A DNA stretch of 64,000 nt from assembly GCA_905612305.1 (NCBI GenBank), contig CAJQRK010000007.1:98660-162659 (forward strand), in the 5' to 3' direction. Of this stretch, positions 6,765-52,196 are shown one piece after another. Under the pieces are notes generated by a model. It was not told the DNA's origin. It saw only the letters and a program-made list of their open reading frames with translations, and ran no database searches. Position 1 is the stretch's first letter. Each line of letters begins with the position of its first letter. The position numbers and the translations under genes are program-made. Source of the stretch: an uncultured Flavobacteriales bacterium (GTDB lineage: Bacteria > Bacteroidota > Bacteroidia > Flavobacteriales > BACL11).

Positions 6765-6766
6765 TT

Positions 6767-35989: not shown

Positions 35990-36064
35990 GGGCGATTAAC
36001 TCAGTTGGTTCAGAGTGCCTCCTTTACACGGAGGAAGTCGGGGGTTCGAGTCCCTCATTGCCCA
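35990..36064 (+). tRNA. tRNA-Val, anticodon TAC (UAC), no encoded CCA
   Basis: Folded by hand into a cloverleaf. Acceptor GGGCGAT/ATTGCCC, D stem ACTC/GAGT, anticodon stem CCTCC/GGAGG with loop TTTACAC, T stem GGGGG/CCCTC with loop TTCGAGT, discriminator A. Confidence 0.9.
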
Positions 36065-36065
36065 C
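36044..36065 (+). repeat. attL core (within tRNA-Val T-loop/acceptor 3' strand)
   Basis: GTTCGAGTCCCTCATTGCCCAC; 21/22 identical to 43069-43090. Confidence 0.85.
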
Positions 36066-36100
36066 AGATATTCTACCAAAAGAATCCAAATTTTAGCAAC

Positions 36101-36138
36101 AACCCTGTAAACTAAGTGTTTATGGGGTTTTTTGTTTT
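36101..36138 (+). terminator. Element-borne terminator for the reconstituted tRNA-Val
   Basis: AACCCTGTAAAC-TAAGT-GTTTATGGGGTT forms a 12-bp stem (two G:U pairs), followed by TTTTTTGTTTT. Confidence 0.7.
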
Positions 36139-36175
36139 CCAACATCACCAAATAACACTATTAAATCCCATATTA

Positions 36176-36237
36176 AAGGTGTCCTATTAGGTGTCCTTTT
36201 TTAAGTTTTGAAATGGGACACCAGAAAGAGTGTAAAG
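36176..36237 (+). promoter_or_regulatory. Candidate integrase/Xis arm-type sites, left end
   Basis: GGTGTCCT-ATTA-GGTGTCCT (36178-36197), inverted GGGACACC (36215-36222) and AAGAGTGTAAAG (36226-36237). The same 22-mer and the inverted 12-mer recur at the right end. Confidence 0.5.
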
Positions 36238-36334
36238 TGTTGATAATATGTGAATTATATAGTTTATTCTGTTGCATATTAACTTAAAATTATGTATATT
36301 GTAAGCAATAAATAGGAGTCTAAAATACTTTAAA

Positions 36335-37564: not shown

Positions 37565-37733
37565 AAAAATATTTAATCCTATATACGACAAACCATGGTG
37601 TATAAATAGACCCTCATAATGGTTAGTTACTCACATTATGTTGAAAAGCAAATTAGAGATAATACTTAATTTTGACTAATTATTCAATTAAAATTTGTTA
37701 TATGATATTAATACAAATCAATACATATTAAAT

Positions 37734-38003
37734 ATGGATAAAAACAACTTAGTTACAGTACAAGACCTTCAAAAAATGAAAGAAGAAATTATTAGTGAAA
37801 TAGCACTAATAACAGAAAAAACAACTACTCAAAAGGAGTGGCTAAGGTCAGCAGAGGTAATGAAGATGCTAACCCTTTCCACAGGTACACTACAGAATCA
37901 TAGAATCAATGGAAAAATCCCTTACACTAGGATAGGGGGCACTCTTTATTATGAGCGTAAAGCAATACTTAAAGTGCTTAACGATAATAAGAGAGCTGCC
38001 TAA
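37734..38003 (+). CDS. Excisionase/AlpA-like helix-turn-helix (HTH_17) protein
   Basis: First ATG at 37734 (the track uses an alternative start, 37695). EWLRSAEVMKMLTLSTGTLQNHRINGKIPYTRIGGTLYYE is the MerR-superfamily excisionase-type HTH. Its stop overlaps the next gene's start. Confidence 0.7.
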   Translation: MDKNNLVTVQDLQKMKEEIISEIALITEKTTTQKEWLRSAEVMKMLTLSTGTLQNHRINGKIPYTRIGGTLYYERKAILKVLNDNKRAA

Positions 38004-39535
38004 TGAGTAAAGAAGTTAAGAACAAATACATACCCAAAAACTATAACCACAGTATTTTACTGAAAATTCATTCTCCTAATAAGGAGGATTATAAACCTAA
38101 AGAATATAAGGTTTATCAGCTCTTAGCAATGATTAACGAGCTATACCCAATGCAGGAGAACCAAAGGCTTTTGTATGGGGATTATACCTATATAAGTGCT
38201 ACTAAATTGAAACACTTATTTGGTAATGATTATAAGGCAACTGTTGATTGGTTGGTTAAAGCTGATGTTTTCAAAACAGATAATCAATATATCAATGGTA
38301 AAAAATGTAAGGGGTTTAGTTTTACAGATAGTTATGCGGATGCTACTCCTAAGAAAGTAACCATTTGTAAGGGTTCTTTAGTAAGGAAGCTTTCTAAAAA
38401 ATCTAATTCATCTTATGCTACTGAAAAAAAGTATGGCTTCTTATATAAATATTTAGATGGCTTAGAAATTGATGTAGAGGGGGCTTCTGAATGTGCTTGG
38501 AGTATGTATAAGCAAGATAAATTAGAATACTCTAGTAAGTTAGCTAAATATGAGTTAAAGGTAGCTAGTGCCACTTATAAAAGTAAATCATTAAAAAAAC
38601 CTGCAAATCCTACAGTTAGGTTGACTGTTGGTTTAGATAATATAGATAGGATTGATAACAAAGATTTTGGTTTTACACAAGATTCAACTGCATATAGGGT
38701 GCATACTAACCTTACTAATATTAAAAGTGAGCTTAGGAATTATGTTACTTATAATGGTCAGCCAATAGTATCAGTTGATTTTGCAAATTCACAGCCAATG
38801 CTTAGTACTACACTGTTAAGTCCAGTGTTTTGGAATACTGACGCCACAGCAACTGCAGAAATGGAGGAGAAAATTCTAAAAAAAGGTTTAAAACCTAATA
38901 TTCTTAATAATTCAGACATATTACCCAGTGTTTTCAGTGATATTATAACAATGTCTTGTAATCCCTTTAGCTATACTTCTTATATTATGTTTACAAAAAC
39001 AGGTATTCCACCTGTAAGTATAGCTGTTCCTGTTGATATTCAAAGGTATATTGACCTTTGCCAGAGTGGGGATTTGTACAAGTTTCTATCAAAAGAAATG
39101 CAGTTAGAACAACAGGGTATAGCTGATATTGATGGTAGGGGTGTTAAGGCAGCAGTATTTCAAGTGTTGTTTACTGATAACAGGTTCTTAGGACAAGCTG
39201 ACGCTAAACCTAAAAGAATATTTAAGGAATTATTCCCATCTGTTTATGATATACTCTTTCATATTAAGCGTAATGATAGCACAGTCCTTCCTATTACCCT
39301 ACAAATTATTGAAAGTACTATTATTTTGAATAGAGTGGCAAAGCGTATTTCTATTGAAAGACCCAACTTATTTATTACTACTATTCACGATTCTGTTGCT
39401 ACTACATTAGGTAATGAGGATTATGTAGAGCAAGTAATGCGGGAAGAAATGATAATAGCAATAGGTCTTGAACCATCTTTTAAAGTGGATTATTGGTCAG
39501 CTGATAATCCTATAACAATTAAAAAAACAGCATAA
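38003..39535 (+). CDS. Hypothetical 510-aa protein with family-A (Pol I/T7-like) polymerase-like motifs; putative element replicase
   Basis: Real ORF, translationally coupled on both sides. YRVHTNL (231-237), IVSVDFANSQPML (D259), RGVKAAVFQVLF (K382/F386/F390) and TTIHDSVATT (H462/D463) occur in the order expected for PolA pre-motif A and motifs A, B and C; the K382/F386/F390 spacing reproduces the motif B K-x3-F-x3-Y register. The function is inferred, not demonstrated. Confidence 0.45.
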   Translation: MSKEVKNKYIPKNYNHSILLKIHSPNKEDYKPKEYKVYQLLAMINELYPMQENQRLLYGDYTYISATKLKHLFGNDYKATVDWLVKADVFKTDNQYINGKKCKGFSFTDSYADATPKKVTICKGSLVRKLSKKSNSSYATEKKYGFLYKYLDGLEIDVEGASECAWSMYKQDKLEYSSKLAKYELKVASATYKSKSLKKPANPTVRLTVGLDNIDRIDNKDFGFTQDSTAYRVHTNLTNIKSELRNYVTYNGQPIVSVDFANSQPMLSTTLLSPVFWNTDATATAEMEEKILKKGLKPNILNNSDILPSVFSDIITMSCNPFSYTSYIMFTKTGIPPVSIAVPVDIQRYIDLCQSGDLYKFLSKEMQLEQQGIADIDGRGVKAAVFQVLFTDNRFLGQADAKPKRIFKELFPSVYDILFHIKRNDSTVLPITLQIIESTIILNRVAKRISIERPNLFITTIHDSVATTLGNEDYVEQVMREEMIIAIGLEPSFKVDYWSADNPITIKKTA

Positions 39536-39729
39536 TGCATACATATTTCATAAACAAAAATGGTGTTCAAACTTATATTGATAGCAGAGGGATTTATCTC
39601 TCTTACCCCATAGACAGCCGTAACATTGCAGAAGTATCATTAGATAGCTCTACAAGGGCTCTAAAGCTGTTTCAAGTAGCTTCTTTGCAGGATATAACAG
39701 GCTTTCATATTATGGCTTATAATTTTTAG
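39535..39729 (+). CDS. Hypothetical 64-aa protein
   Basis: Its ATG overlaps the stop of the upstream gene (TAATG). No recognisable motif. Confidence 0.45.
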   Translation: MHTYFINKNGVQTYIDSRGIYLSYPIDSRNIAEVSLDSSTRALKLFQVASLQDITGFHIMAYNF

Positions 39730-39788
39730 TTATCATTACTAATCATGTGTATAATAAAATCATGTATTCTCCCTCTTAAATTAGGAAA

Positions 39789-39859
39789 ATAATAACTCAA
39801 AATGCCAGAATCTAATGTATATATCTGACTACCTATAAATAGCATCATAATTACGTAAA
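39789..39859 (+). repeat. Intra-element direct repeat, copy A
   Basis: ATAATAACTCAAAATGCCAGAATCTAATGTATATATCTGACTACCT matches 42803-42848 at 41/46 positions. Both copies are followed ~15 nt later by (A/G)ATTACGTAAA. Confidence 0.8.
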
Positions 39860-40279
39860 TAACTACTAATCAATTATTTACAATTATACTATTGGAATTA
39901 CCCTTATTAGTGTAAAATAATGTCTGGCAAAGTATTGTTATTAAGACTTACATCTACCCAGCAGTTCCGAACTCAAACAAACCTATCAATGATTAATTAA
40001 TAAAAGTTAGTTATTTATTATATTGAAGTATTTTAAGGTTTTTAAGGCTTAAAAAGAGAATAATTAACAACTCTACATCCTGTAAATTGAGCATATAGAT
40101 AGTTATAAAATTGAACTTTAAATGTGGCTGTTTAAGTGTGTTTCTTCAAGTGGTAGTTGAGGTGTTGCTTACGGTATTTAGTTCTTAACCTATATAAATA
40201 AACTCAAACTATTGAAAATAGATATATTATAACTAAGTTTGGGGAGTTTAAAACAATAGATTAACAATAAAATAAGATT

Positions 40280-41089
40280 ATGAAAAAAATACTATTTGGA
40301 TTATTACTATTTAGCTTTGTAAATGCATTATCAATAAATCCAGTTATTGAATACCTATATGAACCTGATTCTTTAGGATTAGATTTTAAAGAGTATCAAC
40401 TACTAACTAAAGATAAAGCTAAAATAAATAGTTGGTGGCTTAGTCCATTGGTTAAAAATGATAATAACAATAATGTTATAATAATTGCAGGAGGTGATGC
40501 TGGAAATATGTCTTATTTATTAAACCATGCTTACTCCATAAGCTATAACGGATACAATGTTGTATTATTTGATTACAGAGGGTTTGGCAAAAGTTCAAGT
40601 TTTGAAATAAATCAAAAGCAACTGTATTATAACGAATTTACAGATGACCTAGAAACTGTTATTAGTAAAGTAAAAGAAAAATGGAATGATAAGAAAATTG
40701 GAGTTTTAGCTTTATCAATGGGAACAATAATAACAAACTCTTATTTGAAAACACATACTCTTGATTATATTATTTTAGAGGGAGTTGTCAGTAATACAAG
40801 TAACTTCACAACAAAAGTTGAAAATTTAAAAAATCGTAAAATATTACTCCCAAAATCTTCTAAGAAGTATGATGAATTATTTTTTGTAAATCTACAAAAT
40901 GCAAAAAATGTAATTATTTTTCATGGAACTGAAGATAATTTTTCTGAAATCACAGAACTTAAAAAGATTAAAAAAATAAATATTATAGAATTTAATGGAG
41001 GGCATTTACAAGGATTTCATTCACTAAGTAAAAATTATTTTGGAGATTTATATATCAATCATATCACGAGTTTTTTTAATAATAAATGA
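40280..41089 (+). CDS. Secreted alpha/beta-hydrolase (serine hydrolase)
   Basis: Signal peptide, FDYRGFGKSS, nucleophile elbow GVLALSMGT, acid FHGTEDN and His NGGHLQGF. Confidence 0.7.
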   Translation: MKKILFGLLLFSFVNALSINPVIEYLYEPDSLGLDFKEYQLLTKDKAKINSWWLSPLVKNDNNNNVIIIAGGDAGNMSYLLNHAYSISYNGYNVVLFDYRGFGKSSSFEINQKQLYYNEFTDDLETVISKVKEKWNDKKIGVLALSMGTIITNSYLKTHTLDYIILEGVVSNTSNFTTKVENLKNRKILLPKSSKKYDELFFVNLQNAKNVIIFHGTEDNFSEITELKKIKKINIIEFNGGHLQGFHSLSKNYFGDLYINHITSFFNNK

Positions 41090-41258
41090 AGTTTCCATTT
41101 TTTTAATGATTTAATTTCTATTTTAAAGAGGAGATGTAAAATTAACTCTAATGCTTGAAAACAGTCTTATTTATAAAAAGCGAAATCTATTTACAAATTA
41201 TACCACTTTGGAAAGAATACGTACAGTTAAACCTTTATTTTAACATGAAAAAACAAAA

Positions 41259-42362
41259 ATGAGATTAATTATAATACTTTCAGTCCTACAATTTTATGCA
41301 GCAATTATTTATGCTCAAAACTCAGATACCACTTCTGCTTTAATAAAACATTCTGAAATTTTTAGAATACAGCTAGAGCAAGATAGTACTCTAAATAAGG
41401 AATTAGAATTAGTTGACTATTTTTTAAATAAAAAATATGATTCAATTAATATTCAAAGTAATAGTTCAGAACAATTTAAAAAATATAGTTTAAATTTTTA
41501 TTCCTCTAAATATTATAAAAATAAAGATAATGAATATGTAATTTTATCTTCTAAGCAAGATGCAGAGAAAACAAACTTTAAGGTTATCTACAAATTAAAC
41601 TCAGAAGCATTTAATTTGAAATATGATGATTTCTATAATGCCATTTTTAATTTGAATTTCATTAAGAAAGAAGGTGAAACATACCTAGATATTAGTCCTG
41701 ATTATACTGATTATAATACATATTCAATTGAAAATATTACCTTTTACCAACTAGAACCTTTTACTGAATTAGAGAAAAAGGAATTAGTAAAGGATGTGTC
41801 CTTTTATTTTGAGATGTATAAACGATTTGAGGTAAAGAAAAAAACTCAGCCATTAAAAATAATTAATATTAATTATTTAAGCAGTTTACACTTTATCGGT
41901 TTTGATTATGCTTTAATGCAGACTGGAATAACTATACCTGATGAAAACCTTCTTCTTTCTCCTGAATATTTATCAAACAAACATGAAATGATTCATTATA
42001 TCCTAAATGGAGAATATAAGTTTCGTACTTTTATAAATGAAGGAATAGCAACTATTTATGGAGGTAGTGGTGGTCAAACTTATCAAAAGAAATTAGAAAA
42101 TGTAAGTAATAAAATAACTGCAGAAGAAAGAGAGGATTTTATTAAATTCCTTGTTGAGGGTAAAAGAGTTGGAGGTGATTTTCAGGATTTTTATTATTCA
42201 ATATCAGCAAAATTAGTTGATTTATATAGGATAAAGGAAGGCTTTACGGATAAGGAGCTTATTGATGCTTTGAATAATCTTAAAATAACACACAAAGAAT
42301 TTATTATAGACAAGCTAAAGGAAGAGAATCCTAGTGAGTTTATCAATTCCATTTTTTATTAA
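41259..42362 (+). CDS. Secreted putative gluzincin metallopeptidase (peptidase_MA-like)
   Basis: Signal peptide. HEMIH (41991-42005) is followed 15 residues later by NEGIATIYGG, the HExxH...EGxAxY pattern of MA-clan peptidases. Confidence 0.55.
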   Translation: MRLIIILSVLQFYAAIIYAQNSDTTSALIKHSEIFRIQLEQDSTLNKELELVDYFLNKKYDSINIQSNSSEQFKKYSLNFYSSKYYKNKDNEYVILSSKQDAEKTNFKVIYKLNSEAFNLKYDDFYNAIFNLNFIKKEGETYLDISPDYTDYNTYSIENITFYQLEPFTELEKKELVKDVSFYFEMYKRFEVKKKTQPLKIININYLSSLHFIGFDYALMQTGITIPDENLLLSPEYLSNKHEMIHYILNGEYKFRTFINEGIATIYGGSGGQTYQKKLENVSNKITAEEREDFIKFLVEGKRVGGDFQDFYYSISAKLVDLYRIKEGFTDKELIDALNNLKITHKEFIIDKLKEENPSEFINSIFY

Positions 42363-42802
42363 AAAATACTTATATATATTTATACAATTAATTATTATAT
42401 AATCAATATACTGTAAATAGGTGAATTATAATAAGACTGTTTGAAGCAAAATGGACACCTCAAAAAATAGGATTAAAGTTTAATAAAGAAGATGAAAAGT
42501 AGAAAAACAACAGACAGTAGAGAAAAAGATTGTTGTTGAGTAAAACAAAAGTGCATAATTTCTATTATATAATGTGCCATTTAAGAAAGGTATAAGCGAA
42601 AACCTTACAGGAAGCTCTAAAGGTTCGGTAAGTGCGACTACTAAGCTTGTAAGAGAGTTAATTGCCATCAACATTACCTTTACAGATACTAAAGAAGAGG
42701 AATAAAGCTATGTATTAGCACTAAAACGACATCAAATCTGACAACATAAAAAAGAAAACCCTTGTAAATCATTAATACTTATTTTGAATACAATTTTAGT
42801 GT

Positions 42803-42873
42803 ATAATAACTCAAAATACCAAAATCTAGTGTGTATATCAGACTACCTTTTAACACAAAGGTGATTACGTAAA
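42803..42873 (+). repeat. Intra-element direct repeat, copy B
   Basis: See copy A (39789-39859). Confidence 0.8.
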
Positions 42874-42968
42874 CCAAGCTATATTAACAACTTACTAATT
42901 AATTTAGAAGTTTTAAAAGTTCAAAATCATATAAAATTTAATACATTTGCCACGCAGGGTGAAAATAA

Positions 42969-43018
42969 CTTTACACTCTTGCTAAAAGATTCCAATAAGG
43001 TGTCCTATTAGGTGTCCT
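42969..43018 (+). promoter_or_regulatory. Candidate integrase/Xis arm-type sites, right end
   Basis: CTTTACACTCTT (42969-42980) is the exact inverse of 36226-36237. AAGGTGTCCTATTAGGTGTCCT (42997-43018) is identical to 36176-36197. Confidence 0.5.
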
Positions 43019-43068
43019 ATTAAGAATTAAGATTTTAAACTGCTGAATATCAGTATATTAATGAGAAA

Positions 43069-43090
43069 GTTCAAGTCCCTCATTGCCCAC
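43069..43090 (+). repeat. attR core: displaced original 3' end of tRNA-Val, continuing into an encoded CCA
   Basis: GTTCAAGTCCCTCATTGCCCAC followed by CA (so ...GCCCACCA). Confidence 0.85.
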
Positions 43091-43097
43091 CAAAAAG

Positions 43098-43121
43098 AAA
43101 CCCACTCATTTGAGTGGGTTT
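43098..43121 (+). terminator. Hairpin terminator (presumed original tRNA-Val terminator); member of the CCCACTCA hairpin family
   Basis: AAACCCACTCA-TT-TGAGTGGGTTT followed by a T-rich run. Confidence 0.7.
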
Positions 43122-43214
43122 TATATTTACAGAAATGACATTCTGTCTTGAAATTTACTTTGGTACAGTTTTCGCTTATATACTTACTAAACATAATCAA
43201 TTAAAAATAAGAAA

Positions 43215-45119
43215 ATGAAAAAGAAAGGTAGTATTAATGTTAAGACCGAGAATATATTTCCAATAATTAAACAATTTCTATATTCAGATCACGAGATATT
43301 CTTAAGAGAGCTGGTTTCTAATGCGGTAGATGCTACCCAAAAAATGAAAACACTTACAACAATTGGAGAATTAGATGCTGATATTAAAAACTTAAGAGTT
43401 GAAGTAATATTAAATAAAAAAGAAAAAACAATTACCATTAGAGATAATGGGATTGGAATGACAGATAAAGAATTAGATAAATATATCAATCAAATTGCAT
43501 TCTCTGGAGCTGAAGAGTTCGTTAATAAATACAAAGATGCTGACACAAAGAATTCAATTATTGGTCATTTTGGACTTGGCTTCTACTCTGCTTTTATGGT
43601 TGCTAAAGAAGTTGAGATTATTACAAAAAGTCAGCAAGCAAATAGTAAACCAGTTAAGTGGATCTGTGATGGCTCTCCAAATTTCACAATGGAAGAAGCG
43701 AATAAAAAAACCAAGGGAACAGATATTGTTTTACATATTGCAGATGACTCAACAGAATTTTTGGAAGAAAGTAGGGTTTATGCTATTTTAAATAAGTACT
43801 GCAAGTTCTTGCCAGTTGAAATTAAATTTGGAACTAAGACTGATGAAATAGATGATCCTAAAGGAAAAAAAGATGATAAAGGAGATGTTCTTAAAATTGA
43901 TAAGGTATCAGATAATATAATTAATAATACCAAACCCGCTTGGACAAAATCTCCCGCAAATCTAAAAGATGAACATTATAAATCTTTTTATAAAGAATTA
44001 TACCCAATGGAGTTTTCTGATCCATTATTTCATATTCACTTAAATGTTGACTTTCCTTTTAACTTAACCGGTATTTTATATTTTCCAAAATTAAAAAACA
44101 ATCTAGAGGTTCAAAAAAATAAAATTAACCTTTACAGTAATCAGGTTTTTATAACTGACAATGTAGAAAATATTGTCCCTGAATTTCTAACACTTTTACA
44201 TGGTGTAATTGACTCTCCAGATATTCCTTTAAATGTCTCTAGATCTTATCTTCAAGCGGATGGAAATGTTAAGAAAATAGCAAGTCATATTACTAAAAAA
44301 GTAGCTGATAAGCTATCAAGAATGTTCAAAAAAGACAGAAAAGATTTTGAACAGAAATGGGATGATGTTAAGGTGTTTATTGAATATGGCATGTTAACAG
44401 AACAGAAATTCTTTGATAAAGCTAAAGATTTTTCTCTTTATAAAAATACTAATAGCGAATACTATACATTTAGTGAGTTTTCTAAAAAAGTAAAGAATTC
44501 TCAGAGAAATAAGGAAGGGAAAACAATAGTTTTATATACCAATGATTCAAAAGAACAGCATAGTTTTGTTAAGACCGCAACAGATAAAGGTTATGAGGTT
44601 CTGGAACTAGGAGGGCCTTTAATTAGCCATTTAATTAGCAGGCTTGAGGCAGATAGTACGGATATTCAATTTACTAGAGTTGATGCCGATATAATAGATA
44701 AACTAATTGAGCAAGAAGAAGCTACTATTTCAAAGTTATCTGATAAAGAACAAGAGAAGTTACAGAAAATGATTGAAGAAGGAGTTGATAAGGAAAAATT
44801 TACTGTGCAAGTTCAAAATATGTCAGTCTCAGACTCACCTATAGTTATAACTCAGAGTGAATTTATGAGAAGAATGAAAGAGCAGCAGCAATTATCTGGA
44901 GGCGGAGGCATGCAGATGTTTGGCTCTATGCCTGAGTCATATAATTTAGCCATTAATTCAAATCACGATCTAATTAGCAAGATTCTTAAAGAGAAGACAA
45001 AGAAGAAAAGAACTAATCTAATTAATCAACTTCTTGATTTAGCCTTATTATCTCAGGGCATGCTAAAAGGTGAAGATCTTACTGCATTCATTTCTAGAAG
45101 CGTGACTCTAATTAAATAA
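43215..45119 (+). CDS. htpG: Molecular chaperone HtpG (Hsp90)
   Basis: 634 aa. GHKL ATPase N-domain motifs (EIFLRELVSNAVDA, IGHFGLGFYSAFMV). Confidence 0.95.
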   Translation: MKKKGSINVKTENIFPIIKQFLYSDHEIFLRELVSNAVDATQKMKTLTTIGELDADIKNLRVEVILNKKEKTITIRDNGIGMTDKELDKYINQIAFSGAEEFVNKYKDADTKNSIIGHFGLGFYSAFMVAKEVEIITKSQQANSKPVKWICDGSPNFTMEEANKKTKGTDIVLHIADDSTEFLEESRVYAILNKYCKFLPVEIKFGTKTDEIDDPKGKKDDKGDVLKIDKVSDNIINNTKPAWTKSPANLKDEHYKSFYKELYPMEFSDPLFHIHLNVDFPFNLTGILYFPKLKNNLEVQKNKINLYSNQVFITDNVENIVPEFLTLLHGVIDSPDIPLNVSRSYLQADGNVKKIASHITKKVADKLSRMFKKDRKDFEQKWDDVKVFIEYGMLTEQKFFDKAKDFSLYKNTNSEYYTFSEFSKKVKNSQRNKEGKTIVLYTNDSKEQHSFVKTATDKGYEVLELGGPLISHLISRLEADSTDIQFTRVDADIIDKLIEQEEATISKLSDKEQEKLQKMIEEGVDKEKFTVQVQNMSVSDSPIVITQSEFMRRMKEQQQLSGGGGMQMFGSMPESYNLAINSNHDLISKILKEKTKKKRTNLINQLLDLALLSQGMLKGEDLTAFISRSVTLIK

Positions 45120-45123
45120 GTAT

Positions 45124-45172
45124 AAGTTCGAGTATTTTAGCCCACCAAAAGAAAAACCACTCAATTGAGTGG
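45124..45172 (+). repeat. Degenerate second copy of the tRNA-Val 3' end plus hairpin
   Basis: AAGTTCGAGTATTTTAGCCCACCAAAAGAAAAACCACTCAATTGAGTGG aligns with 43067-43118 (AAGTTCAAGTCCCTCATTGCCCACCAAAAAGAAACCCACTCATTTGAGTGGG). Confidence 0.6.
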
Positions 45173-45210
45173 GCTTGTTGTTTATCTATATAATGCAATA
45201 AATTAAAGAA

Positions 45211-45232
45211 ACCCACTCAATATTGAGTGGGT
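45211..45232. terminator. Palindromic hairpin of the CCCACTCA family (terminator for gpx and/or htpG)
   Basis: ACCCACTCAA-TA-TTGAGTGGGT, a perfect 10-bp stem between convergent genes. Confidence 0.65.
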
Positions 45233-45238
45233 CTTTAT

Positions 45239-45772
45239 TTATTCAAAAATTATTAAAGAAGTTATTTTATCGCTTAATGGATTTGTAGTAGAGTAGAAGT
45301 AATTAATTAACTCCCCATCTCTATCAACTAGATATTTCTGAAAATTCCACTTGACACTTGAATTTAAAACACCATTATATTTTTTATCAGTTAACCAGGT
45401 ATATAGAGGAGAAATATTATTTCCCTTAACATCTATCTTTTCTGTTAGAATAAAACTAACACCAAAGTTTTTTGTACAAAATTGCTTAATTTCCTCTTCT
45501 CGTGCTGGTTCTTGAGCACCAAATTGATTACAAGGCAAACCAATAATAACTAAATCACTCATATATTTCTGATAAAGCGCTTGTAAATCAGCATACTGTT
45601 TTGTAAAACCACAATTTGAAGCAACATTAACAAATAAAATGTACTTACCTTTAAAAGAACTTAATTCTATTAAGTTTCCATCTATATCTTTAATGGATAT
45701 ATTGTGTATATTTTCTTTATATTGGACGCTCATAGTGCAAAATAGCATTAATACTATTAAAAAAGATTTCAT
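45239..45772 (-). CDS. gpx: Glutathione peroxidase (Cys-type), signal-peptide form
   Basis: Start taken at ATG 45772 (MKSFLIVLMLF), which begins the predicted signal peptide. NVASNCGFT, LPCNQFG and WNFQKYLV motifs. Confidence 0.9.
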   Translation of the reverse strand: MKSFLIVLMLFCTMSVQYKENIHNISIKDIDGNLIELSSFKGKYILFVNVASNCGFTKQYADLQALYQKYMSDLVIIGLPCNQFGAQEPAREEEIKQFCTKNFGVSFILTEKIDVKGNNISPLYTWLTDKKYNGVLNSSVKWNFQKYLVDRDGELINYFYSTTNPLSDKITSLIIFE

Positions 45773-45948
45773 AACTATTTTTATATTTTTAGTAAAGGTG
45801 AGGGGATTTATATTGCAATACACCTAACTTCTCTATATCTATTAACCTTGTATTATGAAAACTAAGTTTATTTATAGAAAGTTAGGTGTATTTAAGTAAT
45901 CTATTGAAGAATTAATTTTTTGTTAACTACACTTTTATTGATTATATA

Positions 45949-47877
45949 TTATCTTGCTAAACGTCTTATAACATCTCCAGTATCATATATATCAAAAACT
46001 ACTTGATTGATTGTATTGCGATCAACTTTTTCACCAAGAATATTTATTGAATATAAATATTCTTTATCTAAAGTATTGTAATCAATAATATCTGTTGTTG
46101 TTGGAATTAAGACAGCATCAATAACATGTACAACACCATTGTCAGCTACAATATCAGCTACAGTTACCATAGCATTGTCAATAAAGACTCCCATTGAGTT
46201 AATTGTTAGTGTTACATCTGTCCCAAGTAATGTTGAAACTACTTGATTATTTGATAACATTCCTGACATTACGCTATCTCCAACAACATGATGCTTTAAG
46301 ATATCAGTTAATTGAGGAATATCATTAAGTAATGCCGTAACTGTACCAGCTGGCAATAAATTAAATGCAGCATCTGTAGGCGCAAATAAAGTAAATGGAC
46401 CAGCTCCAGAGAGTACACCATTTAATGCACAAACATCAACAGCAACTTTTAAGGTAGTATGATCTGCAGAATTAGAAACTATATCATAAATGGTATTTCC
46501 TACACAGCTAGTGTTCCAGTAAGGATTTGAAGGATCATTAGGAAATACAACTATCTCTGTTGAAGGGTCATAATCAATACCAGCAGTTAATACATTTGCA
46601 TCATCAACAAATGTTACTTGATGAGTTATAAAATTATATATATACGCTTGATGACAAACACCACAAGTATCCTCTAGTGCAGTTCCATTAACAACACCAT
46701 AACAATCAGTTGGAGGCAATAAAACAGCATCAATTACGTGTACTACTCCATTATCAGCCACTATATCTGCAACTATTACTTGAGCATTATCTATAAAAAC
46801 TCCCATAGAATTAATTGTTACTGTTACATCCGTTCCAAGTAATGTATTTACTATCTGGCCATTAGATAACATTCCTGACATTACGCTAGCACCCACAACA
46901 TGATGCTTTAAAATATCTGTTAACTGAGGTATATCATTTAATAATGCCGTAACTGTACCAGCTGGTAATAAATTAAATGCAGCATCTGTAGGCGCAAACA
47001 AAGTAAATGGACCAGGGCCTGATAAAGTACCATCCAAGGCACAAGCATCAATAGCAACTTTTAGTGTCGTATGGTCAGCTGATGATGAAACAATATCATA
47101 AATTGAATTTGTAGCAGGTGGCAATAAAACAGCATCAATAACATGCACAACACCATTGTCAGCTACAATATCAGCTACAATTACCATGGCGTTGTCAATA
47201 AAAACTCCCATTGAGTTAATTGTTACTGTTACATCTGTACCATTTAATGTTGTGACAACTTGATTATTTGATAACATTGTTGACATTACGCTAGCTCCCA
47301 CAACATGTTGCTTTAAAATATCTGTTAACTGAGGTATATCATTTAATAATGCCGTAACTGTACCAGCTGGTAATAAATTAAATGCAGCATCTGTAGGCGC
47401 AAACAAAGTAAATGGACCAGGGCCTGATAAAGTACCATCCAAGGCACAAGCATCAATAGCAACTTTTAGTGTCGTATGGTCAGCTGATGATGAAACAATA
47501 TCATAAATTGAATTAGAAGAATTAACAATAATTACACCAGTCATACCATTTGTAGCATGTTGACCAACAGAACAGTCATAAGAATAAGTTCCTGGCACAG
47601 TAAAAATGTGGGTATAAATTATTGCGCCCACAACATTAGTAGTATTAGACTGAAAGCTTACAGGATTATTAAAACTTGATCCTGTCTGAGAATTGACATC
47701 AGCATTAACATCATGATTACCACCATCATTAATCCACTCTACAGTGTCTCCCAAATTAATAGTTAGATTAGATGGCATATAATAATATCCACCTGAATTC
47801 ACAGTATGGATAATTGCACTAACTGTAGATGCAAAAAAGCAGGTTAGAAGTAAGAAAATTAGTTTGTTTGTTTTCAT
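45949..47877 (-). CDS. Secreted cupredoxin (plastocyanin-like) domain fused to three FAS1 (fasciclin) domains
   Basis: Signal peptide. Type-1 Cu ligand pattern ...GGNHDV...YDCSVGQHATNGMTGVIIV. Three FAS1 units (FTLFAPTDAAFNLLPAGTVTALL...GVVHVIDAVLLP). Confidence 0.85.
   Translation of the reverse strand: MKTNKLIFLLLTCFFASTVSAIIHTVNSGGYYYMPSNLTINLGDTVEWINDGGNHDVNADVNSQTGSSFNNPVSFQSNTTNVVGAIIYTHIFTVPGTYSYDCSVGQHATNGMTGVIIVNSSNSIYDIVSSSADHTTLKVAIDACALDGTLSGPGPFTLFAPTDAAFNLLPAGTVTALLNDIPQLTDILKQHVVGASVMSTMLSNNQVVTTLNGTDVTVTINSMGVFIDNAMVIVADIVADNGVVHVIDAVLLPPATNSIYDIVSSSADHTTLKVAIDACALDGTLSGPGPFTLFAPTDAAFNLLPAGTVTALLNDIPQLTDILKHHVVGASVMSGMLSNGQIVNTLLGTDVTVTINSMGVFIDNAQVIVADIVADNGVVHVIDAVLLPPTDCYGVVNGTALEDTCGVCHQAYIYNFITHQVTFVDDANVLTAGIDYDPSTEIVVFPNDPSNPYWNTSCVGNTIYDIVSNSADHTTLKVAVDVCALNGVLSGAGPFTLFAPTDAAFNLLPAGTVTALLNDIPQLTDILKHHVVGDSVMSGMLSNNQVVSTLLGTDVTLTINSMGVFIDNAMVTVADIVADNGVVHVIDAVLIPTTTDIIDYNTLDKEYLYSINILGEKVDRNTINQVVFDIYDTGDVIRRLAR
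46905..47514. repeat. Intragenic tandem duplication, 405-bp period (FAS1 units 1 and 2)
   Basis: 46905-47109 and 47310-47514 are identical by eye over ~205 bp. A third, more diverged unit lies at ~46290-46500. Confidence 0.85.
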
Positions 47878-47880
47878 TTT

Positions 47881-47905
47881 AGTTTAGTTTAGTTTAGTTT
47901 AGTTT
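47881..47905. repeat. Pentanucleotide microsatellite (AGTTT)5, i.e. (AAACT)5 on the coding strand, ending 3 nt upstream of the FAS1-protein start codon
   Basis: Read directly: cat ttt AGTTT AGTTT AGTTT AGTTT AGTTT aaaaa. Confidence 0.95.
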
Positions 47906-47939
47906 AAAAAAGATTTATTATTGTTTTATTAAATAGTAT

Positions 47940-48125
47940 TTATATTTGTAGGGGAAATGTATATTTTCCTGTTGGATACATATCCAACCATTTTTTTAGT
48001 TGTTCTTTAGTTTTTAAGGTAACGGTCATAGTTTTAGTTTTAAAGATAATACTTGCAGAATTATTTTTAATTTTATCTAAAATTTTTTCTGCTTTCCTTT
48101 TTTTCAATAATCTGTAATTACTCAT
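47940..48125 (-). CDS. Hypothetical 61-aa Lys-rich protein
   Basis: ORF only, no motif. Same strand as the FAS1 gene and just upstream of it. Confidence 0.3.
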   Translation of the reverse strand: MSNYRLLKKRKAEKILDKIKNNSASIIFKTKTMTVTLKTKEQLKKWLDMYPTGKYTFPLQI

Positions 48126-48262
48126 AATTATATTTTTAATGTTTAAACTTTTTGCAAATGTATAGGTTTTTTACTAAAAAACTATACAAATATAATAAAA
48201 TGTATAATTTATAATTAAAAAAGATATACAAAATAGAATTATTAGTTAATATTGCACAAATT

Positions 48263-48649
48263 ATGAATATGAAAAAACCAGATAATGTTGTATTTGATAT
48301 CCAATCACAGGAATATGATTCATACAGAAAAAATTATCCAACAGATTTAGGTAGCCCTGCATTTGACAGTTCAATTTTAAAGAAAGATAATTTTGCATTC
48401 AAACATTTAAAGGCAAAATTTGATGAGCTTAATACAGAATATAAAAGTTTATTAACTAAATTAAAATGGAATGAGCTAATATATAACTCAGAGCATAACT
48501 TTATTCCTATTGCGGGCAATACATATCATTTATATAAAAATAAAAATATTACTTTTCTAAGCATGATAGAACCAAACCAGTGGGAAATGGAGTTCATAGG
48601 ATCATTCAGATTATCAGCAAATGATATTTGGGAAAGAATTAATCAATAA
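48263..48649 (+). CDS. Hypothetical 128-aa protein
   Basis: Clean ORF in an otherwise non-coding gap. No motif recognised with certainty. Confidence 0.5.
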   Translation: MNMKKPDNVVFDIQSQEYDSYRKNYPTDLGSPAFDSSILKKDNFAFKHLKAKFDELNTEYKSLLTKLKWNELIYNSEHNFIPIAGNTYHLYKNKNITFLSMIEPNQWEMEFIGSFRLSANDIWERINQ

Positions 48650-48760
48650 AAAATATCAAAAAAATTACAAGAGTATCAATAAGCAATACTATTTATTTTT
48701 ACAATAAACCTTTTCTAGAAAATAAACGATAGCAAAATAAAGTATAACTATAGGCTTGTC

Positions 48761-48794
48761 AAATAACCCCACTCAATATTGAGTGGGGTTATTT
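48761..48794. terminator. Palindromic hairpin of the CCCACTCA family between convergent genes
   Basis: AAATAACCCCACTCAA-TA-TTGAGTGGGGTTATTT. The right arm overlaps the msrB stop codon. Confidence 0.65.
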
Positions 48795-49232
48795 CTTTGA
48801 GATAAATCTAATACTTATTGAATTAACACAATGCCTCAAGTTTTTTTCTGTAAGCTCCTCACCTTGAAATAGATGGCCAATATGACCCTTGCAATTCGCA
48901 CAACATATTTCTACTCTTTGCATTGCAGAACTATTATCTTGATTTCTAATTAATGAATTATTAATCTCGTCATCAAATGATGGCCATCCACAATTTGATT
49001 TAAATTTTGATTGTGACTTAAAGAGAGGGTTATTACATGCCTTACACACATATAATCCGGCTTCATACAAGGCTACATAATCACCAGAAAAAGCTCTTTC
49101 TGTTCCCTTATTCACAATTATCTCTCGTTCTGCTTTTGTCAAAGCATCAAAAAAATCTCTATCTTTCACAGTATTATCTTGTGCAACTAAATATACAGGT
49201 AATATAAGAAATAAAAATAATAATTTATTCAT
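48789..49232 (-). CDS. msrB: Peptide-methionine (R)-S-oxide reductase, signal-peptide form
   Basis: CKACNNPLF, GWPSF, CANCKGHIGHLF and RHCVNS motifs, plus an N-terminal signal peptide. Confidence 0.9.
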   Translation of the reverse strand: MNKLLFLFLILPVYLVAQDNTVKDRDFFDALTKAEREIIVNKGTERAFSGDYVALYEAGLYVCKACNNPLFKSQSKFKSNCGWPSFDDEINNSLIRNQDNSSAMQRVEICCANCKGHIGHLFQGEELTEKNLRHCVNSISIRFISKK

Positions 49233-49254
49233 TCTACAAAATTACTGAATAATT

Positions 49255-49325
49255 TTCTAAAAAAATTCGAACTTAGAAATGTAAGGCTCACAAAAAAGAA
49301 ACCCACTCAAATGAGTAAGTTTTTG
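49255..49325 (+). repeat. Intergenic repeat family copy (long form)
   Basis: TTCTAAAAAAATTCGAACTTAGAAATGTAAGGCTCACAAAAAAGAAACCCACTCAAATGAGTAAG. Aligns with 50343-50410 and 51617-51690, and through its 3' half with 43085-43118. Confidence 0.65.
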
Positions 49326-49355
49326 CTTGTCTATAAGTAGCAGGAGAAAACCCTA

Positions 49356-50300
49356 TTAATTTTTTATTAATCTCACAAAACAATCATCAGCCTGTTTAAC
49401 TATATCATCAACTAAAATTTTCAACTCCATATAATGATGAGACATTTCGGTATTGGGGTTGATATAATTAAAGTTTTGATGCCTCCAAAATGCCATTGAC
49501 GCACCAGCATAAATGGTAAATGCTTTTAAGGAATTTATTTCATCCTCTAATAACTGAACTTCTGATTGATAGCCAACTAAAAGGTGTTTTGTTTTTTCCA
49601 GATTTATGATTTTTTCTTCTCCACAAATTCCAATTATTGTCATTCCTATATCAAATAAGCGATAATAATTTACAGACTCTTCAAAATCTATAATAGTTGC
49701 CGAATTGTTATCTTCGCCAATAATTACATTGTCCCAAAAAACATCAGAATGAATAATTGATTTGGGTAAATTTAATTTTAAGTAAGGCAAAACATATTCT
49801 AGTATGTTTTTGAGCCAAATATCAAATTCGGAAAAAGCTGAGTATATTTTGACATTTGCAAATTGTTCCTTTCCATAATTAAGTTGACTGGGAAGATATT
49901 CAGGAGCATTTATTTGGTGTAATTTGGCAAGTTTCTTTCCTATCAATTTCAACAAGTGAGGAGGAAGATCTTTTCTAATTTTTCCTTTAATAAAGGTTTT
50001 GAGTATTACCGGCTTATTCTTCCAAATAATGACAGGCTCACCATCAGAAGTATAGATTAGTTTGGAAGTATTAAAATTATTTATTTCTAAATATCTTAAT
50101 AAGTGAGCCAGATCTTTTGCATTTTTTTCTGTTTTTTGTTCAAAAACACAAAGTACATATTGTCCGTTCTCTGATTTTACTAAATAGTTTGTATTTTCAG
50201 AACCACCGCTTAATAATTCAAAAGATGAAATATTATGAATATCAAATTTTACTAAAATTTCCCTAATTTCTATTTCATTCAAGCTTGTAGATTGCTTCAT
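49356..50300 (-). CDS. Phosphotransferase-family kinase (APH/homoserine kinase type II-like)
   Basis: Brenner motif IHSDVFWDNVI, followed by IIDFEES (DFG-equivalent). Confidence 0.75.
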   Translation of the reverse strand: MKQSTSLNEIEIREILVKFDIHNISSFELLSGGSENTNYLVKSENGQYVLCVFEQKTEKNAKDLAHLLRYLEINNFNTSKLIYTSDGEPVIIWKNKPVILKTFIKGKIRKDLPPHLLKLIGKKLAKLHQINAPEYLPSQLNYGKEQFANVKIYSAFSEFDIWLKNILEYVLPYLKLNLPKSIIHSDVFWDNVIIGEDNNSATIIDFEESVNYYRLFDIGMTIIGICGEEKIINLEKTKHLLVGYQSEVQLLEDEINSLKAFTIYAGASMAFWRHQNFNYINPNTEMSHHYMELKILVDDIVKQADDCFVRLIKN

Positions 50301-50342
50301 ATCTATTACATTCTAGTTTTCAAAGTAAACGCACTAAATAAT

Positions 50343-50410
50343 TCTCTAAAAAAAAGTTAGAAATAAGGACCGTAAGGCCCACCAAAAACAAACCCACTAA
50401 TTGAGATTGA
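50343..50410 (+). repeat. Intergenic repeat family copy (long form, hairpin truncated)
   Basis: TCTCTAAAAAAAAGTTAGAAATAAGGACCGTAAGGCCCACCAAAAACAAACCCACTAATTGAG. The right hairpin arm is missing and the repeat is fused to the MFS remnant. Confidence 0.65.
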
Positions 50411-50541
50411 AATTGATCAATATTGAAATAGCTTTTGCAGAATGGTATAAAAACACCATTACTTGCCGCAATAAATCCCCAAAAGAAAAATACTGTTACC
50501 AGAGTAAATAATGCCTGCTTGTGATTCTTATTCTCAATCAT
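50400..50541 (-). pseudogene. 5' remnant (~47 codons) of a glucose/galactose-fucose type MFS transporter (GluP/FucP-like)
   Basis: ALFTLVTVFFFWGFIAASNGVFIPFCKSYFNIDQFQSQLV matches the conserved TM1 and first loop of GluP/FucP. Downstream of ~50400 the track ORF (50320..50541) reads through the repeat element and stops. Confidence 0.65.
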
Positions 50542-50733
50542 AATTGTATTAGTTATTAATTATTTATAATTATCGTTTTAATCCTATCTTCTTTTCTAAC
50601 TCCAGTAAATAAATGCCATTATACAAATCGTTTAAATCTACTGTTTTATCACTTGCAAAGCTAGTTAATTCTTTGAGAAATATTTATATTTGTGTATGTT
50701 TTACACTATCTTTGTAGTCAAATTCTTTAACAT

Positions 50734-51612
50734 ATGATCTTAATAGCTGATAGTGGCTCAACAAAATGTAGCTGGGCTTTATGCAATGCAAATGGCAAGA
50801 TTGTTACTCGACATCATACTATAGGATTTAATCCATATTTTATTGATGAAAAAGATATACTAAAACATTTAGAAGAGTCCGATTTAGTAGAGCATAAAGA
50901 TACCATCACAAATGTTGTCTTCTATGGAGCTGGGTGTTCATCAAAAGAAAAAAATACAGTAATATCAAACCCATTTAATCTATTTTTTAAGAATGCTGAT
51001 GTAGTTATTAGGCATGATATTGATGCGGCCTGCTACGCAATGTATACAGGAAAGCCTAATATAACATGTATATTGGGTACAGGTTCAAATTCGTGTTTTT
51101 TTGATGGGAAAGAAATATCTGAACACGCTCCTTCTTTAGGATTTTTAGTGGGCGATGAAGGTTCTGGAAATTATTTTGGAAAAAAGGCGATAAGTCTTTA
51201 CTTTAATAAAATGCTGCCTGATAATTTAAAAACTAGATTTGAAGCTGATTTTGAAACTAATTTAGTTACAATAAATAAACATATTTACAATAACAGCAGG
51301 GCAAATGTATATCTTGCAGAGTTCTTTCCCTTTATATCAGAGAATAAAAACCATCCCTTAATTCAAGACATTATCTATAAGGCTCTAGATGAATTTTTTA
51401 ACATTCATGTTGGTTGTTTTAAAAATTCTAAAGAGGTTGATATTAACTTTATTGGTTCTGTGGCATACTACCTTTCAGATCAAATCCATGTTGTAGCTAA
51501 AAAGTACAATTACAAGGTTAATGATATTATTAAAAACCCTATTGATAACTTAGTAAGTTATCACTTTAAGTACAGCTGTATCCCAAGCGCTAAACAGAGC
51601 ACATCTACCTAA
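50734..51612 (+). CDS. BadF/BadG/BcrA/BcrD-type ATPase (N-acetylglucosamine kinase-like)
   Basis: ASKHA phosphate-1 motif ILIADSGSTKC and ILGTGSN phosphate-2; 292 aa. Confidence 0.75.
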   Translation: MILIADSGSTKCSWALCNANGKIVTRHHTIGFNPYFIDEKDILKHLEESDLVEHKDTITNVVFYGAGCSSKEKNTVISNPFNLFFKNADVVIRHDIDAACYAMYTGKPNITCILGTGSNSCFFDGKEISEHAPSLGFLVGDEGSGNYFGKKAISLYFNKMLPDNLKTRFEADFETNLVTINKHIYNNSRANVYLAEFFPFISENKNHPLIQDIIYKALDEFFNIHVGCFKNSKEVDINFIGSVAYYLSDQIHVVAKKYNYKVNDIIKNPIDNLVSYHFKYSCIPSAKQSTST

Positions 51613-51616
51613 AACT

Positions 51617-51690
51617 AGTTAGAAAAAAGTAGAAATCAGGACCGCAAGGTTCGCCAAAACGAAATCCCTCTCTACGAGTTAAAGTTCTAC
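51617..51690 (+). repeat. Intergenic repeat family copy (long form, diverged hairpin)
   Basis: TAGTTAGAAAAAAGTAGAAATCAGGACCGCAAGGTTCGCCAAAACGAAATCCCTCTCTACGAG. The GGACC-GCAA-GGTTC stem shows a compensatory change relative to copy 50366-50380. Confidence 0.55.
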
Positions 51691-51710
51691 CTTTTTTATA
51701 TTTTAGCTGT

Positions 51711-52196
51711 ATGAAAATAAAAATTAGAGAAGGTGTGAAAAAGGATCTTCCAGCTGTTCTAGAACTCATAAAAGAATTAGCTGATTTTGAAAATGCTCTT
51801 GAGCAAGTAACAATTACATTAGAAGATCTGGAAAAGGATGGATTTGGAGGAAATCCTTGGTATTGGTTCTTAGTTGCAGAAAAAGATAATAAAATTGTTG
51901 GATTATCTTTTTATTGGATTCGCTATTCTACATGGAAGGGGAAGTTCTTATTCCTTGAAGACTTTGTAATTAAGAGAGAGTATAAAAGACAAGGTATCGG
52001 GTCCAAATTATTTGAAGAAACAATTAATATCTGCAAAAAACAAAAACTAAATGGAATGATATGGCAAGTATTAGATTGGAACACGCCTGCAATAAATTTT
52101 TATAAAAAGTATAATGCTGATATTAGCAAAGAGTGGTTGAATGGAAAACTTACAAAGAATCAAATTGACAAAATTTGTTTTGCCACAAAAAGCTAA
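51711..52196 (+). CDS. GNAT family N-acetyltransferase
   Basis: Acetyl-CoA binding motif REYKRQGIGSKLFEE (Q/RxxGxG/A). Confidence 0.85.
   Translation: MKIKIREGVKKDLPAVLELIKELADFENALEQVTITLEDLEKDGFGGNPWYWFLVAEKDNKIVGLSFYWIRYSTWKGKFLFLEDFVIKREYKRQGIGSKLFEETINICKKQKLNGMIWQVLDWNTPAINFYKKYNADISKEWLNGKLTKNQIDKICFATKS

Follow-up and report, generated by a model that had tools for sequence, protein, structure and literature searches.

The closest known kind of island to the one described here is the tRNA-anchored additive island of the tycheposon type. In Prochlorococcus, tycheposon-shaped islands are situated beside a few tRNA genes and the tmRNA gene, successive integrations push older material inward, partial tRNAs are scattered along the islands, and elements that combine an integrase with replication functions carry the cargo (Hackl et al., bioRxiv 10.1101/2020.12.28.424599). 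In 'Ca. Methylopumilus' (Methylophilaceae), an additive flexible genomic island is marked by the recurring last 20 bp of tRNA-Lys (PMC10872708). Here, a family of repeats downstream of a tRNA-Val gene was analysed in a stretch of 64,000 nt from an uncultured Flavobacteriales bacterium, in the following termed the window (contig C7:98660-162659 of genome G000, an assembly of 1.33 Mb in 77 contigs with 33% G+C and 75% completeness; genomes, contigs and extracted loci are labelled G, C and L, respectively). These repeats are probably att-type junction sites of an additive island, in which small, mostly single-gene cassettes are stacked behind tRNA-Val. Two further kinds of repeats serve as a background, namely integrons, which consist of attI/attC arrays with the integrase IntI and are recognised by the R''-L''-L'-R' architecture and the GTTRRRY core of attC, and repetitive extragenic palindromic (REP) elements and bacterial interspersed mosaic elements (BIME), which are short palindromic intergenic repeats with RAYT transposases.

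Similar to the tycheposon islands, the window contains a 7-kb element with an integrase and a polymerase-like replicase, which fits that build. The recurring site, however, is not a plain partial tRNA. Its copies form a conserved but diverged family, in which a terminator and often a promoter are attached to the site; it is found behind tRNA-Val, behind tmRNA and beside pepF, and most units consist of a single gene and carry no integrase. The lineage differs as well, since the Flavobacteriales are not mentioned in the preprint (bioRxiv 10.1101/2020.12.28.424599). With the island of 'Ca. Methylopumilus', the locus shares the additive character and the recurrence of a repeat that resembles a tRNA 3' end, but the repeat in that island is the actual tRNA end and confined to one locus, whereas here a mimic sharing ~14 nt occurs in several arrays per genome, with mapped junctions and with cassettes common to several species. 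Compared to the known islands, the conserved mimic fused to terminator and promoter, the single-gene units, the several arrays per genome, the mapped junctions and the lineage are different, and no description of the junction family was found in full-text literature searches.

All seven repeat sites that had been listed for this region in a preliminary description were recovered at their positions on the plus strand, and five of them fit a covariance model of one family (R1, built from 16 repeat copies of genome G000). On the tRNA strand, the family consensus is a junction sequence of ~80 bases, AAAAAAGTTCGAAMTTAGGACC-GNRA-GGYCCACCAAAAAGAAA-CCCACTCAnnTGAGTGGG-TTTTT, composed of an upstream half, AAAAAAGTTCGAAMTTAGGACC-GNRA-GGYCCAC, and a downstream half with an A-tract, the hairpin CCCACTCAnnTGAGTGGG and a T-tract. 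The long forms recognised previously belong to a real family, but their consensus is better written AAAAAAGTTCGAAMTTAGGACC-GNRA-GGYCCACCAAAAAGAAACCCACTCAnnTGAGTGGGTTTTT, of which copies 5 to 7 of the window are decayed versions. The upstream half appears to imitate the T-loop-to-CCA end of tRNA-Val and tmRNA. In detail, the long forms share with tRNA-Val only GTTCGA and GCCCACCA, i.e., G(C/T)CCACCA, with a spacer of 17 nt compared to 12 nt in the tRNA, and the tRNA-like spacing of 12 nt is kept in few copies (C76:7865, L030:1837). Copy 1 agrees with tRNA-Val at all but one of 22 nt, and the tRNA-Val end in copy 2 is shortened. Array-edge copies beside pepF (G000:C76:7791-7865, L030:1837-1906 and L024:4160-4234) show this 12-nt spacing from GTTCGA to CCACCA, and their GGACC minihelix arm is incomplete; instead of being carried by cassettes, they may represent older primary sites.

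A fold of -22 to -23 kcal/mol (z about -3.4) was calculated for the consensus hairpin, which is bordered by A- and T-tracts on either side. With gene ends only a few nt away, it qualifies by sequence as an intrinsic (Rho-independent) terminator; a two-way terminator at the 3' end of one cassette's gene is plausible. Except for the tRNA, no Rfam family was matched in the window at the gathering threshold, and a comparison of the array on C76 with Rfam at an E-value threshold gave only weak, sub-threshold look-alikes driven by the terminator. At some junctions, the place of the CCCACTCA hairpin is taken by another recurrent terminator hairpin, GCGGAATCCATCTC-N5-GAGTTAAGATTCCGC (L029:1594-1640 of G009, L035:6155-6200 of G003 and window 51655-51690). 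This second type (GCGGAATCC...GATTCCGC) is located directly 3' of tRNA-Val in G009, and a decayed version of it is present in copy 7.

The repeats are not a product of chance, because CCCACTCA occurs 49 times in G000, compared to about 12 occurrences expected from base composition by our own estimate, and ~16 full-length copies were detected by nhmmer, i.e., six within 8 kb of contig C76, the set of the window and single copies on C19, C21, C32, C34 and C48. By the covariance model, 19 matches were obtained in G000, and the family was found in 15 out of 15 genomes of the genus and in 23 out of 24 genomes of the taxonomic family, with 5-42 matches each; in the other searched families of the order it is rare or was not found. 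A search for the exact core pattern in one genome per species (185,579 species) matched 91 stretches, nearly all of them in metagenome-assembled genomes (MAGs) of uncultured marine Flavobacteriales, e.g., "Cryomorphaceae BACL11" and FRAM18 bins. A genome-wide count had been proposed for distinguishing a generic repeat from att sites, and the tens of clustered copies, instead of hundreds evenly spread, favour the latter.

The copies are clustered in arrays with a spacing of 0.5-3 kb and a single orientation per array, as exemplified by G015:C2:438837-458674, where all copies are located on the minus strand. Arrays begin just after tRNA-Val in G003 and G009 and just after tmRNA in G010 and G015, the repeats being co-oriented with the RNA gene. 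Islands that start at the 3' end of an RNA gene with co-oriented repeats were observed in the window, G003, G009 and G010 for tRNA-Val, and in G010 and G015 for tmRNA; the co-orientation of the directional copies with tRNA-Val in the window, already noted in the preliminary description, was confirmed. A further array adjoins pepF in both G000 (C76) and G003. In G000, the CCCACTCA hairpin follows only tRNA-Val (at its displaced end), tmRNA and one tRNA-Met, while the other 17 tRNAs have unrelated terminators.

The short-read contigs C29 (1-53), C32 and C34 (1-92) of G000 end inside family copies, so the repeats of the family break short-read assemblies. Since contig C29 breaks within the hairpin right after tmRNA, a tmRNA-anchored array probably exists in G000 as well, split between contigs.

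The gene content between the repeats is mosaic. No relative keeps the 43-52 kb block together; htpG, the glutathione peroxidase gene (gpx), the fasciclin-DUF2452-msrB group, the sugar kinase gene and the GNAT acetyltransferase gene are situated at different loci, and the pieces break at the repeats, so that the synteny comparison suggested earlier also speaks for att sites. Compared to G014, the closest relative (~90% identity), the backbone is syntenic again from window ~52252 onwards. In that genome, the kinase gene and the 5' half of copy 7 are found among unrelated genes (G014:C114, 90% identical over window 50673-51672), with homology ending in the hairpin loop of copy 7, and the GNAT gene occurs at a third locus, where G000 contains a 6.2-kb insert with a family copy. 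Among the relatives, individual segments between repeats are present in some genomes and missing from others, independently of one another, or are found at other positions. A unit with a 163-aa gene is 97-100% identical in G003, G015 and G016, the last belonging to a different genus, and one with a 472-aa gene is 97-99% identical in G001, G010 and G015, in both cases with different neighbours. Since the identity of G015 and G010 is as low as 79.5% in the core DNA next to tmRNA, these units must have moved recently between species.

The position of the junctions was derived from 130 repeat copies with 300-nt flanks of nine genomes, flanks being regarded as shared if at least 93% identical. The 5' flank is shared in 29 pairs, the hairpin-side flank in 27 and both in only 5, the pairs not being independent (by our estimate perhaps 10 distinct events per side). 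Pairs sharing the 5' flank remain identical across the entire 5' half and diverge at +1 to +10 relative to the A of ACCAAAA, and pairs sharing the hairpin side remain identical across the hairpin and diverge at -3 to -11 relative to the same A. From where identity stops on each side, it follows that the two halves segregate with different neighbours and join at about CCAC(CAAA), the position of the mature tRNA end. Furthermore, 5' halves are joined precisely to unrelated hairpin types, e.g., GCGGAATCC...GATTCCGC, with shared sequence of only ~8 nt. One pair of empty and occupied sites was found, in which L051:1771 consists of the 5' half of L030:2471 and the hairpin half of L030:7533, with 5,062 nt, i.e., two cassettes, between them. 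As both contigs belong to MAG G003, this difference is probably strain variation. In the same MAG, 100% identical segments occur in different cassette contexts on contigs C3, C5 and C2 (L030, L051 and L052), which would be explained by real duplications or by two co-assembled strains with differently ordered arrays.

The cassette with an APH-family phosphotransferase gene was followed through metagenomes in a protein-guided scan, which yielded 26 loci of ~90% nucleotide identity. Family copies flank nearly all of them, and their neighbours vary. Its hairpin-side partner is a genuine tRNA-Val 3' end in L162, a genuine tmRNA 3' end in L168 and L169 (ARAGORN) and other 5' halves elsewhere; in L165, the cassette is located one cassette away from tRNA-Val. 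The real tRNA-Val and tmRNA ends used as partners share only CCACCAAA with the 5' half. On the other side of the gene, the 5' half is common to L165, L168 and L169 as far as GGCCCAC, after which three different hairpins follow. This divergence point coincides with the end of attL/attR identity of the 7-kb element of the window, where GCCCAC|AGAT and GCCCAC|CAAA part.

The majority of the array genes are antisense to the repeat, and their stop codons lie within a few nt of the hairpin; the htpG, GNAT and sugar kinase cassettes have the opposite orientation to most. The cargo is very diverse, with 104 Pfam families in 115 array open reading frames (ORFs), the most frequent being proteins with secretion tails, SprB repeats, ABC transporters, MerC, SnoaL and FUR, and no recombinase is found among the top families. 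Hairpin-ended array genes often carry the end of a type-IX-secretion sorting domain (...KIILE*). At G000:C76:1324-1360 (L001), ~40 nt resembling the final codons of such a domain (...DVTVEKKIILE*) are located beside a hairpin with no gene attached, and the same codons end real genes at C7:59766 and C27:60757; the stretch looks like the remnant of a deleted cassette gene.

Past the hairpin, the sequence reads TTTCTTTTTGGTGGRCC-TYNC-GGTCCTAAGTTCGAACTTTTTT in gene direction, and in 26 of the 68 strong copies a TAnnTTT(G/A) box follows exactly 27 nt after TTCGAA, with an ATG 4 nt later. In about a third of the family copies, the conserved unit extends ~45 nt further in the 5' direction to a TAnnTTTG box and an ATG on the opposite strand, as copy 5 does for msrB. 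At the start of ORFs of at least 100 codons, TAnnTTTG-N4-ATG forms a sharp genome-wide peak in G000, with 54 cases at spacing 4 and 25 at spacing 5 (e.g., window 49233-49254 for msrB, and C76:1448). Because of this peak, the motif is taken as an ordinary promoter form of this organism, probably giving leaderless mRNAs, which suggests that leaderless mRNAs from Bacteroidetes-type -7 promoters are common here. A -33 box TTTG is absent at the usual spacing, and only TTCG is present 23 nt upstream of the -7 box. Judged from these signals, the junction would carry the terminator of one gene and, often, the promoter of the next.

Taken as att-type junctions of an additive island, the repeats would work as follows. 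A cassette would enter when its own junction recombines either with the true 3' end of one of the two RNA genes, tRNA-Val or tmRNA, or with the pseudo-end that a resident cassette provides. Each insertion would recreate a junction site, so that arrays could grow and shuffle while keeping one orientation. The upstream half would end the next cassette and the downstream half would be the terminator end of one cassette's gene, whereas on the opposite strand the 5' half would often run into the leaderless promoter (TAnnTTTG-N4-ATG) of the cassette whose end it forms. That the exchange is site-specific recombination may be inferred from three observations: the junctions fall within a narrow window, 5' halves are joined to unrelated hairpins, and the 5' half and genuine tRNA or tmRNA ends can replace each other. 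Catalysis would take place in trans, and elements that target tRNAs, among them the 7-kb element of the window, are the most likely source of the tyrosine integrases, as suggested by cassettes that encode no integrase and by a crossover point coinciding with the att end of that element. In kind, this agrees with the proposal of att scars in the preliminary description, for which the anchored arrays, the co-orientation, the non-conserved block and the APH cassette abutting real tRNA-Val and tmRNA ends speak. Simple scars of tRNA-Val were nevertheless rejected for the long forms, since these are a paralogous, conserved family also used at tmRNA and pepF sites rather than independent decayed scars. 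The repeats bound units that usually comprise one gene with its own terminator and promoter, rather than large decayed elements.

The junction system seems to work somewhat like an integron, as it combines co-oriented arrays of small, mostly single-gene cassettes, each with a structured, putative recombination site, and a very diverse cargo. By none of the features that define integrons does it belong to them: the junction consensus contains neither the attC architecture nor GTTRRRY, its only palindrome being the short AAGTTCGAACTT without attC-type paired boxes, and no integrase gene is adjacent in the five genomes searched. Moreover, promoter and terminator belong to the cassettes themselves, transcription mostly runs towards the anchor, and the primary site is a tRNA or tmRNA end. 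It is tempting to speculate on an integron-like but unrelated gene-capture system, in which single-gene cassettes with their own terminator and leaderless promoter use a mimic of tRNA and tmRNA 3' ends as recombination site, encode no integrase themselves and depend for their movement at the CCAC core on integrases supplied in trans by tRNA-targeting elements, so that genes are spread across species and genera. We put this forward tentatively, as a proposal that could nearly as well hold as fail.

The putative source of such activity in the window, the 7-kb integrative element, is located on the plus strand at 36066..43068 between the tRNA and the cassette array. It encodes a tyrosine integrase (36335-37564; PF00589 match at G000:C7:135660-136148) and is flanked by a 22-nt direct repeat, GTTC(G/A)AGTCCCTCATTGCCCAC, with one mismatch between the ends, of which attL (36044-36065, plus strand) is the 3' part of tRNA-Val. 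The right end of the element (window 42685-43136) is 100% identical over 118 nt in another species (G006:C190:2971-3088), and in G010 (C1:126674-142768), tRNA-Val is occupied by a larger relative of ~13 kb, whose two ends are 80-91% identical, from which the element family appears to circulate in the genus. In G003 (L035, contig C2), htpG is followed by a partial tRNA-Met (3' part, minus strand, 6243-6290) and a gene for a 408-aa tyrosine integrase (6560-7786), 25% identical to that of the window. This gene was considered as a cassette integrase and rejected, because it belongs to a separate, second kind of integrative element in the same island region, with the partial tRNA-Met as its site.

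Several observations weigh against junction sites of a cassette island. No recombinase gene is consistently found beside the arrays, as no PF00589 hit in five genomes abuts an array start; serine recombinases were searched for and found in G015 only. The family core was not found in IMG/VR viral contigs, and within the stretches fetched, no tRNA or tmRNA is present at the start of some arrays (L024, L028 and L030). A few junctions are off the core, namely in the hairpin loop (the left end of one unit, and copy 6) or inside the 5' half (gene X of G001). Several of the compared genomes are MAGs, whose quality limits certainty, and the possible strain mixture in G003 and the non-independence of the flank pairs have to be added. 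Finally, short-homology recombination between conserved repeats could produce many of the same patterns.

The serious rival, unlikely as it is compared to junction sites, makes use of several of these points. According to it, the repeats are conserved intergenic modules of terminator and promoter under selection for expression, and they are exchanged by homologous recombination after uptake of foreign DNA, with the ~40-80-nt repeats as arms and without a dedicated enzyme. The absence of a dedicated recombinase beside the arrays and the junctions off the core are in agreement with this, as are the hairpin with its U-tract as a plausible two-way terminator and TAnnTTTG-N4-ATG, which is the norm across G000 and part of 26 of the 68 copies. 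The junctions, however, cluster in a window of ~8 nt instead of being distributed over the 35-nt 5' half or the hairpin. Exchange by a RecA-type mechanism requires more than ~8 nt of shared sequence, yet 5' halves are joined to unrelated hairpins over no greater length, and genuine ends of tRNA-Val or tmRNA, which have only CCACCAAA in common with them, also occur as partners.

Alternatively, the 5' half could act mainly at the RNA level. It would then form a minihelix similar to a tRNA acceptor, closed by a GNRA loop and ending in an ACCA tail, and would serve as a signal for processing or stability, while the pattern in the genomes would be a secondary effect. Well-formed copies almost all show a GNRA loop on the tRNA-sense strand (GAGA 39, GTAA 20, GAAA 6, GGGA 1 and GCAA 1) and the helix has some paired changes, but the loop variants are one mutation apart, so that shared descent may explain them, and the commonest stem contains an A-C mismatch on that strand (27 GGACC/GGCCC versus 13 GGACC/GGTCC). 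Besides, the majority of the array genes are transcribed from the other strand, no Rfam family matches, and the minihelix is not predicted by RNAalifold. Because RNAalifold supports the terminator hairpin alone, this reading, conceivable but quite improbable, was not adopted. The second explanation of the preliminary description, a REP-like element or a miniature inverted-repeat transposable element (MITE) that is non-autonomous, inserts independently into intergenic regions and ends in a CCA-like tail by chance, agrees with a short intergenic family with a palindromic hairpin, a possible terminator function and tens of copies per genome, but is hardly credible in view of the missing Y1/RAYT transposase (no PF01797 match in 5 genomes including one 99% complete, with matches in control genomes), consensus ends that are not inverted repeats, the lack of target duplications in the alignments, copies that number tens rather than hundreds and lie in few arrays instead of being dispersed, halves that segregate with different neighbours, and the one clean empty/occupied pair, which differs by two gene-carrying cassettes and not by the repeat alone.

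In the window, the island is anchored at tRNA-Val(UAC) (35990..36065, plus strand; ARAGORN; Rfam tRNA 65.7 bits), and the same tRNA-Val precedes the arrays in G003 and G009. The replication origin could not be placed from GC skew along contig C7, the signal being too noisy. Copies 1 and 2 are fairly intact and copies 5 to 7 decayed; the hairpins of the latter fold no better than shuffles (z -1.2, -0.8 and -0.3, respectively). Copy 1 (43069..43122, plus strand) is the displaced original 3' end of tRNA-Val (attR, 43069-43090), followed by CAAAAAGAAA and the hairpin ACCCACTCA-TT-TGAGTGGGT. It matches R1 at 43056-43131 (48.7 bits, E 2.6e-7; fold z -5.6), and an identical 3' flank is found at the unoccupied tRNA-Val of G003. 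Between copies 1 and 2, htpG (43215..45119, plus strand; Pfam HSP90) is oriented like the repeats. It is 86% identical to G010 and G003, and in G010 it is flanked by family copies at another locus (L034 4304, 6487 and 6785). Copy 2 (45124..45183, plus strand; nhmmer 45140-45183), 5 nt after the htpG stop, comprises the shortened tRNA-Val-like end (AAGTTCGAGT...GCCCACCAAAAG) and the hairpin, with an R1 match at 45107-45186 (31.7 bits, E 1.2e-3).

Copies 3 and 4, to which no strand is assigned in the feature annotation, consist of the hairpin only, as described before, and are members of the family by hairpin sequence. Copy 3 (CCCACTCAATATTGAGTGGG; 45205..45244) is located at the 3' end of gpx (45239-45823, minus strand), and its weak R1 match is confined to the hairpin part (45199-45261, E 0.17). 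Copy 4 (48761..48794) is common to the convergent genes of DUF2452 (48263-48649, plus strand) and msrB (48789-49232, minus strand) and forms the hairpin end of the msrB cassette; here, too, only the hairpin part is matched by R1 (48728-48800, E 0.039). Copy 5 (49252..49332, plus strand; R1 81.3 bits, E 2.4e-14) is a complete junction, in which the 5' half and the minus-strand sequence TAATTTTG-N4-ATG make up the promoter side of msrB, and the degenerate hairpin half is part of the APH cassette. Homology of metagenome contigs to the window ends at 49286-49291, i.e., in the core, in three loci; a 39-mer specific to copy 5 was not found in metagenome contigs.

The APH gene (49356..50300, minus strand; Pfam APH), a canonical cassette cargo, is antisense to the repeats. 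Copy 6 (50343..50405, plus strand; R1 match 50343-50423, 68.2 bits, E 1.6e-11) extends from the 5' half through the core to the left hairpin arm, beyond which a transporter remnant takes the place of the right arm; complete versions of this junction are present upstream of APH in L160-L169. The remnant (50395..50541, minus strand) comprises the first 49 codons of a gene of ~548 aa, cut at ...CAATCTCAATTA|GTGGGTTTG by a break within the hairpin loop of copy 6 that coincides with a CTCAATT microhomology, and intact homologues of 540-552 aa in other genera are 84-88% identical over residues 1-49. Copy 6 records the rearrangement that truncated the transporter gene. Downstream of it, a gene for a BadF/BcrA-type sugar kinase (50734..51612, plus strand; Pfam) is followed by copy 7 (51615..51695, plus strand; R1 53.7 bits, E 2.2e-8), in which the 5' half (GGACC-GCAA-GGTTCGCCAAAA) is joined to the decayed hairpin of the second type. 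The last cassette is the GNAT acetyltransferase gene (51711..52196, plus strand; Pfam), which is flanked by family copies in G015 (L020), G007 (L033) and the metagenome loci L161 and L163. Exact-protein look-ups for MsrB and GNAT gave no match.

Streamlined marine bacteria possess large flexible gene pools, while few of the usual vehicles of gene exchange are found in them. In an abundant uncultured lineage of such bacteria, a compact junction that marks cassette boundaries makes the flexible genome readable straight from metagenomes, i.e., which genes are cassettes, where the arrays are located and which cassettes are shared between species. If the exchange is indeed site-specific and catalysed in trans, it would represent a gene-capture system convergent with integrons and built on the mimicry of tRNA ends, and integrase elements of the tycheposon type would mobilise much smaller passengers.

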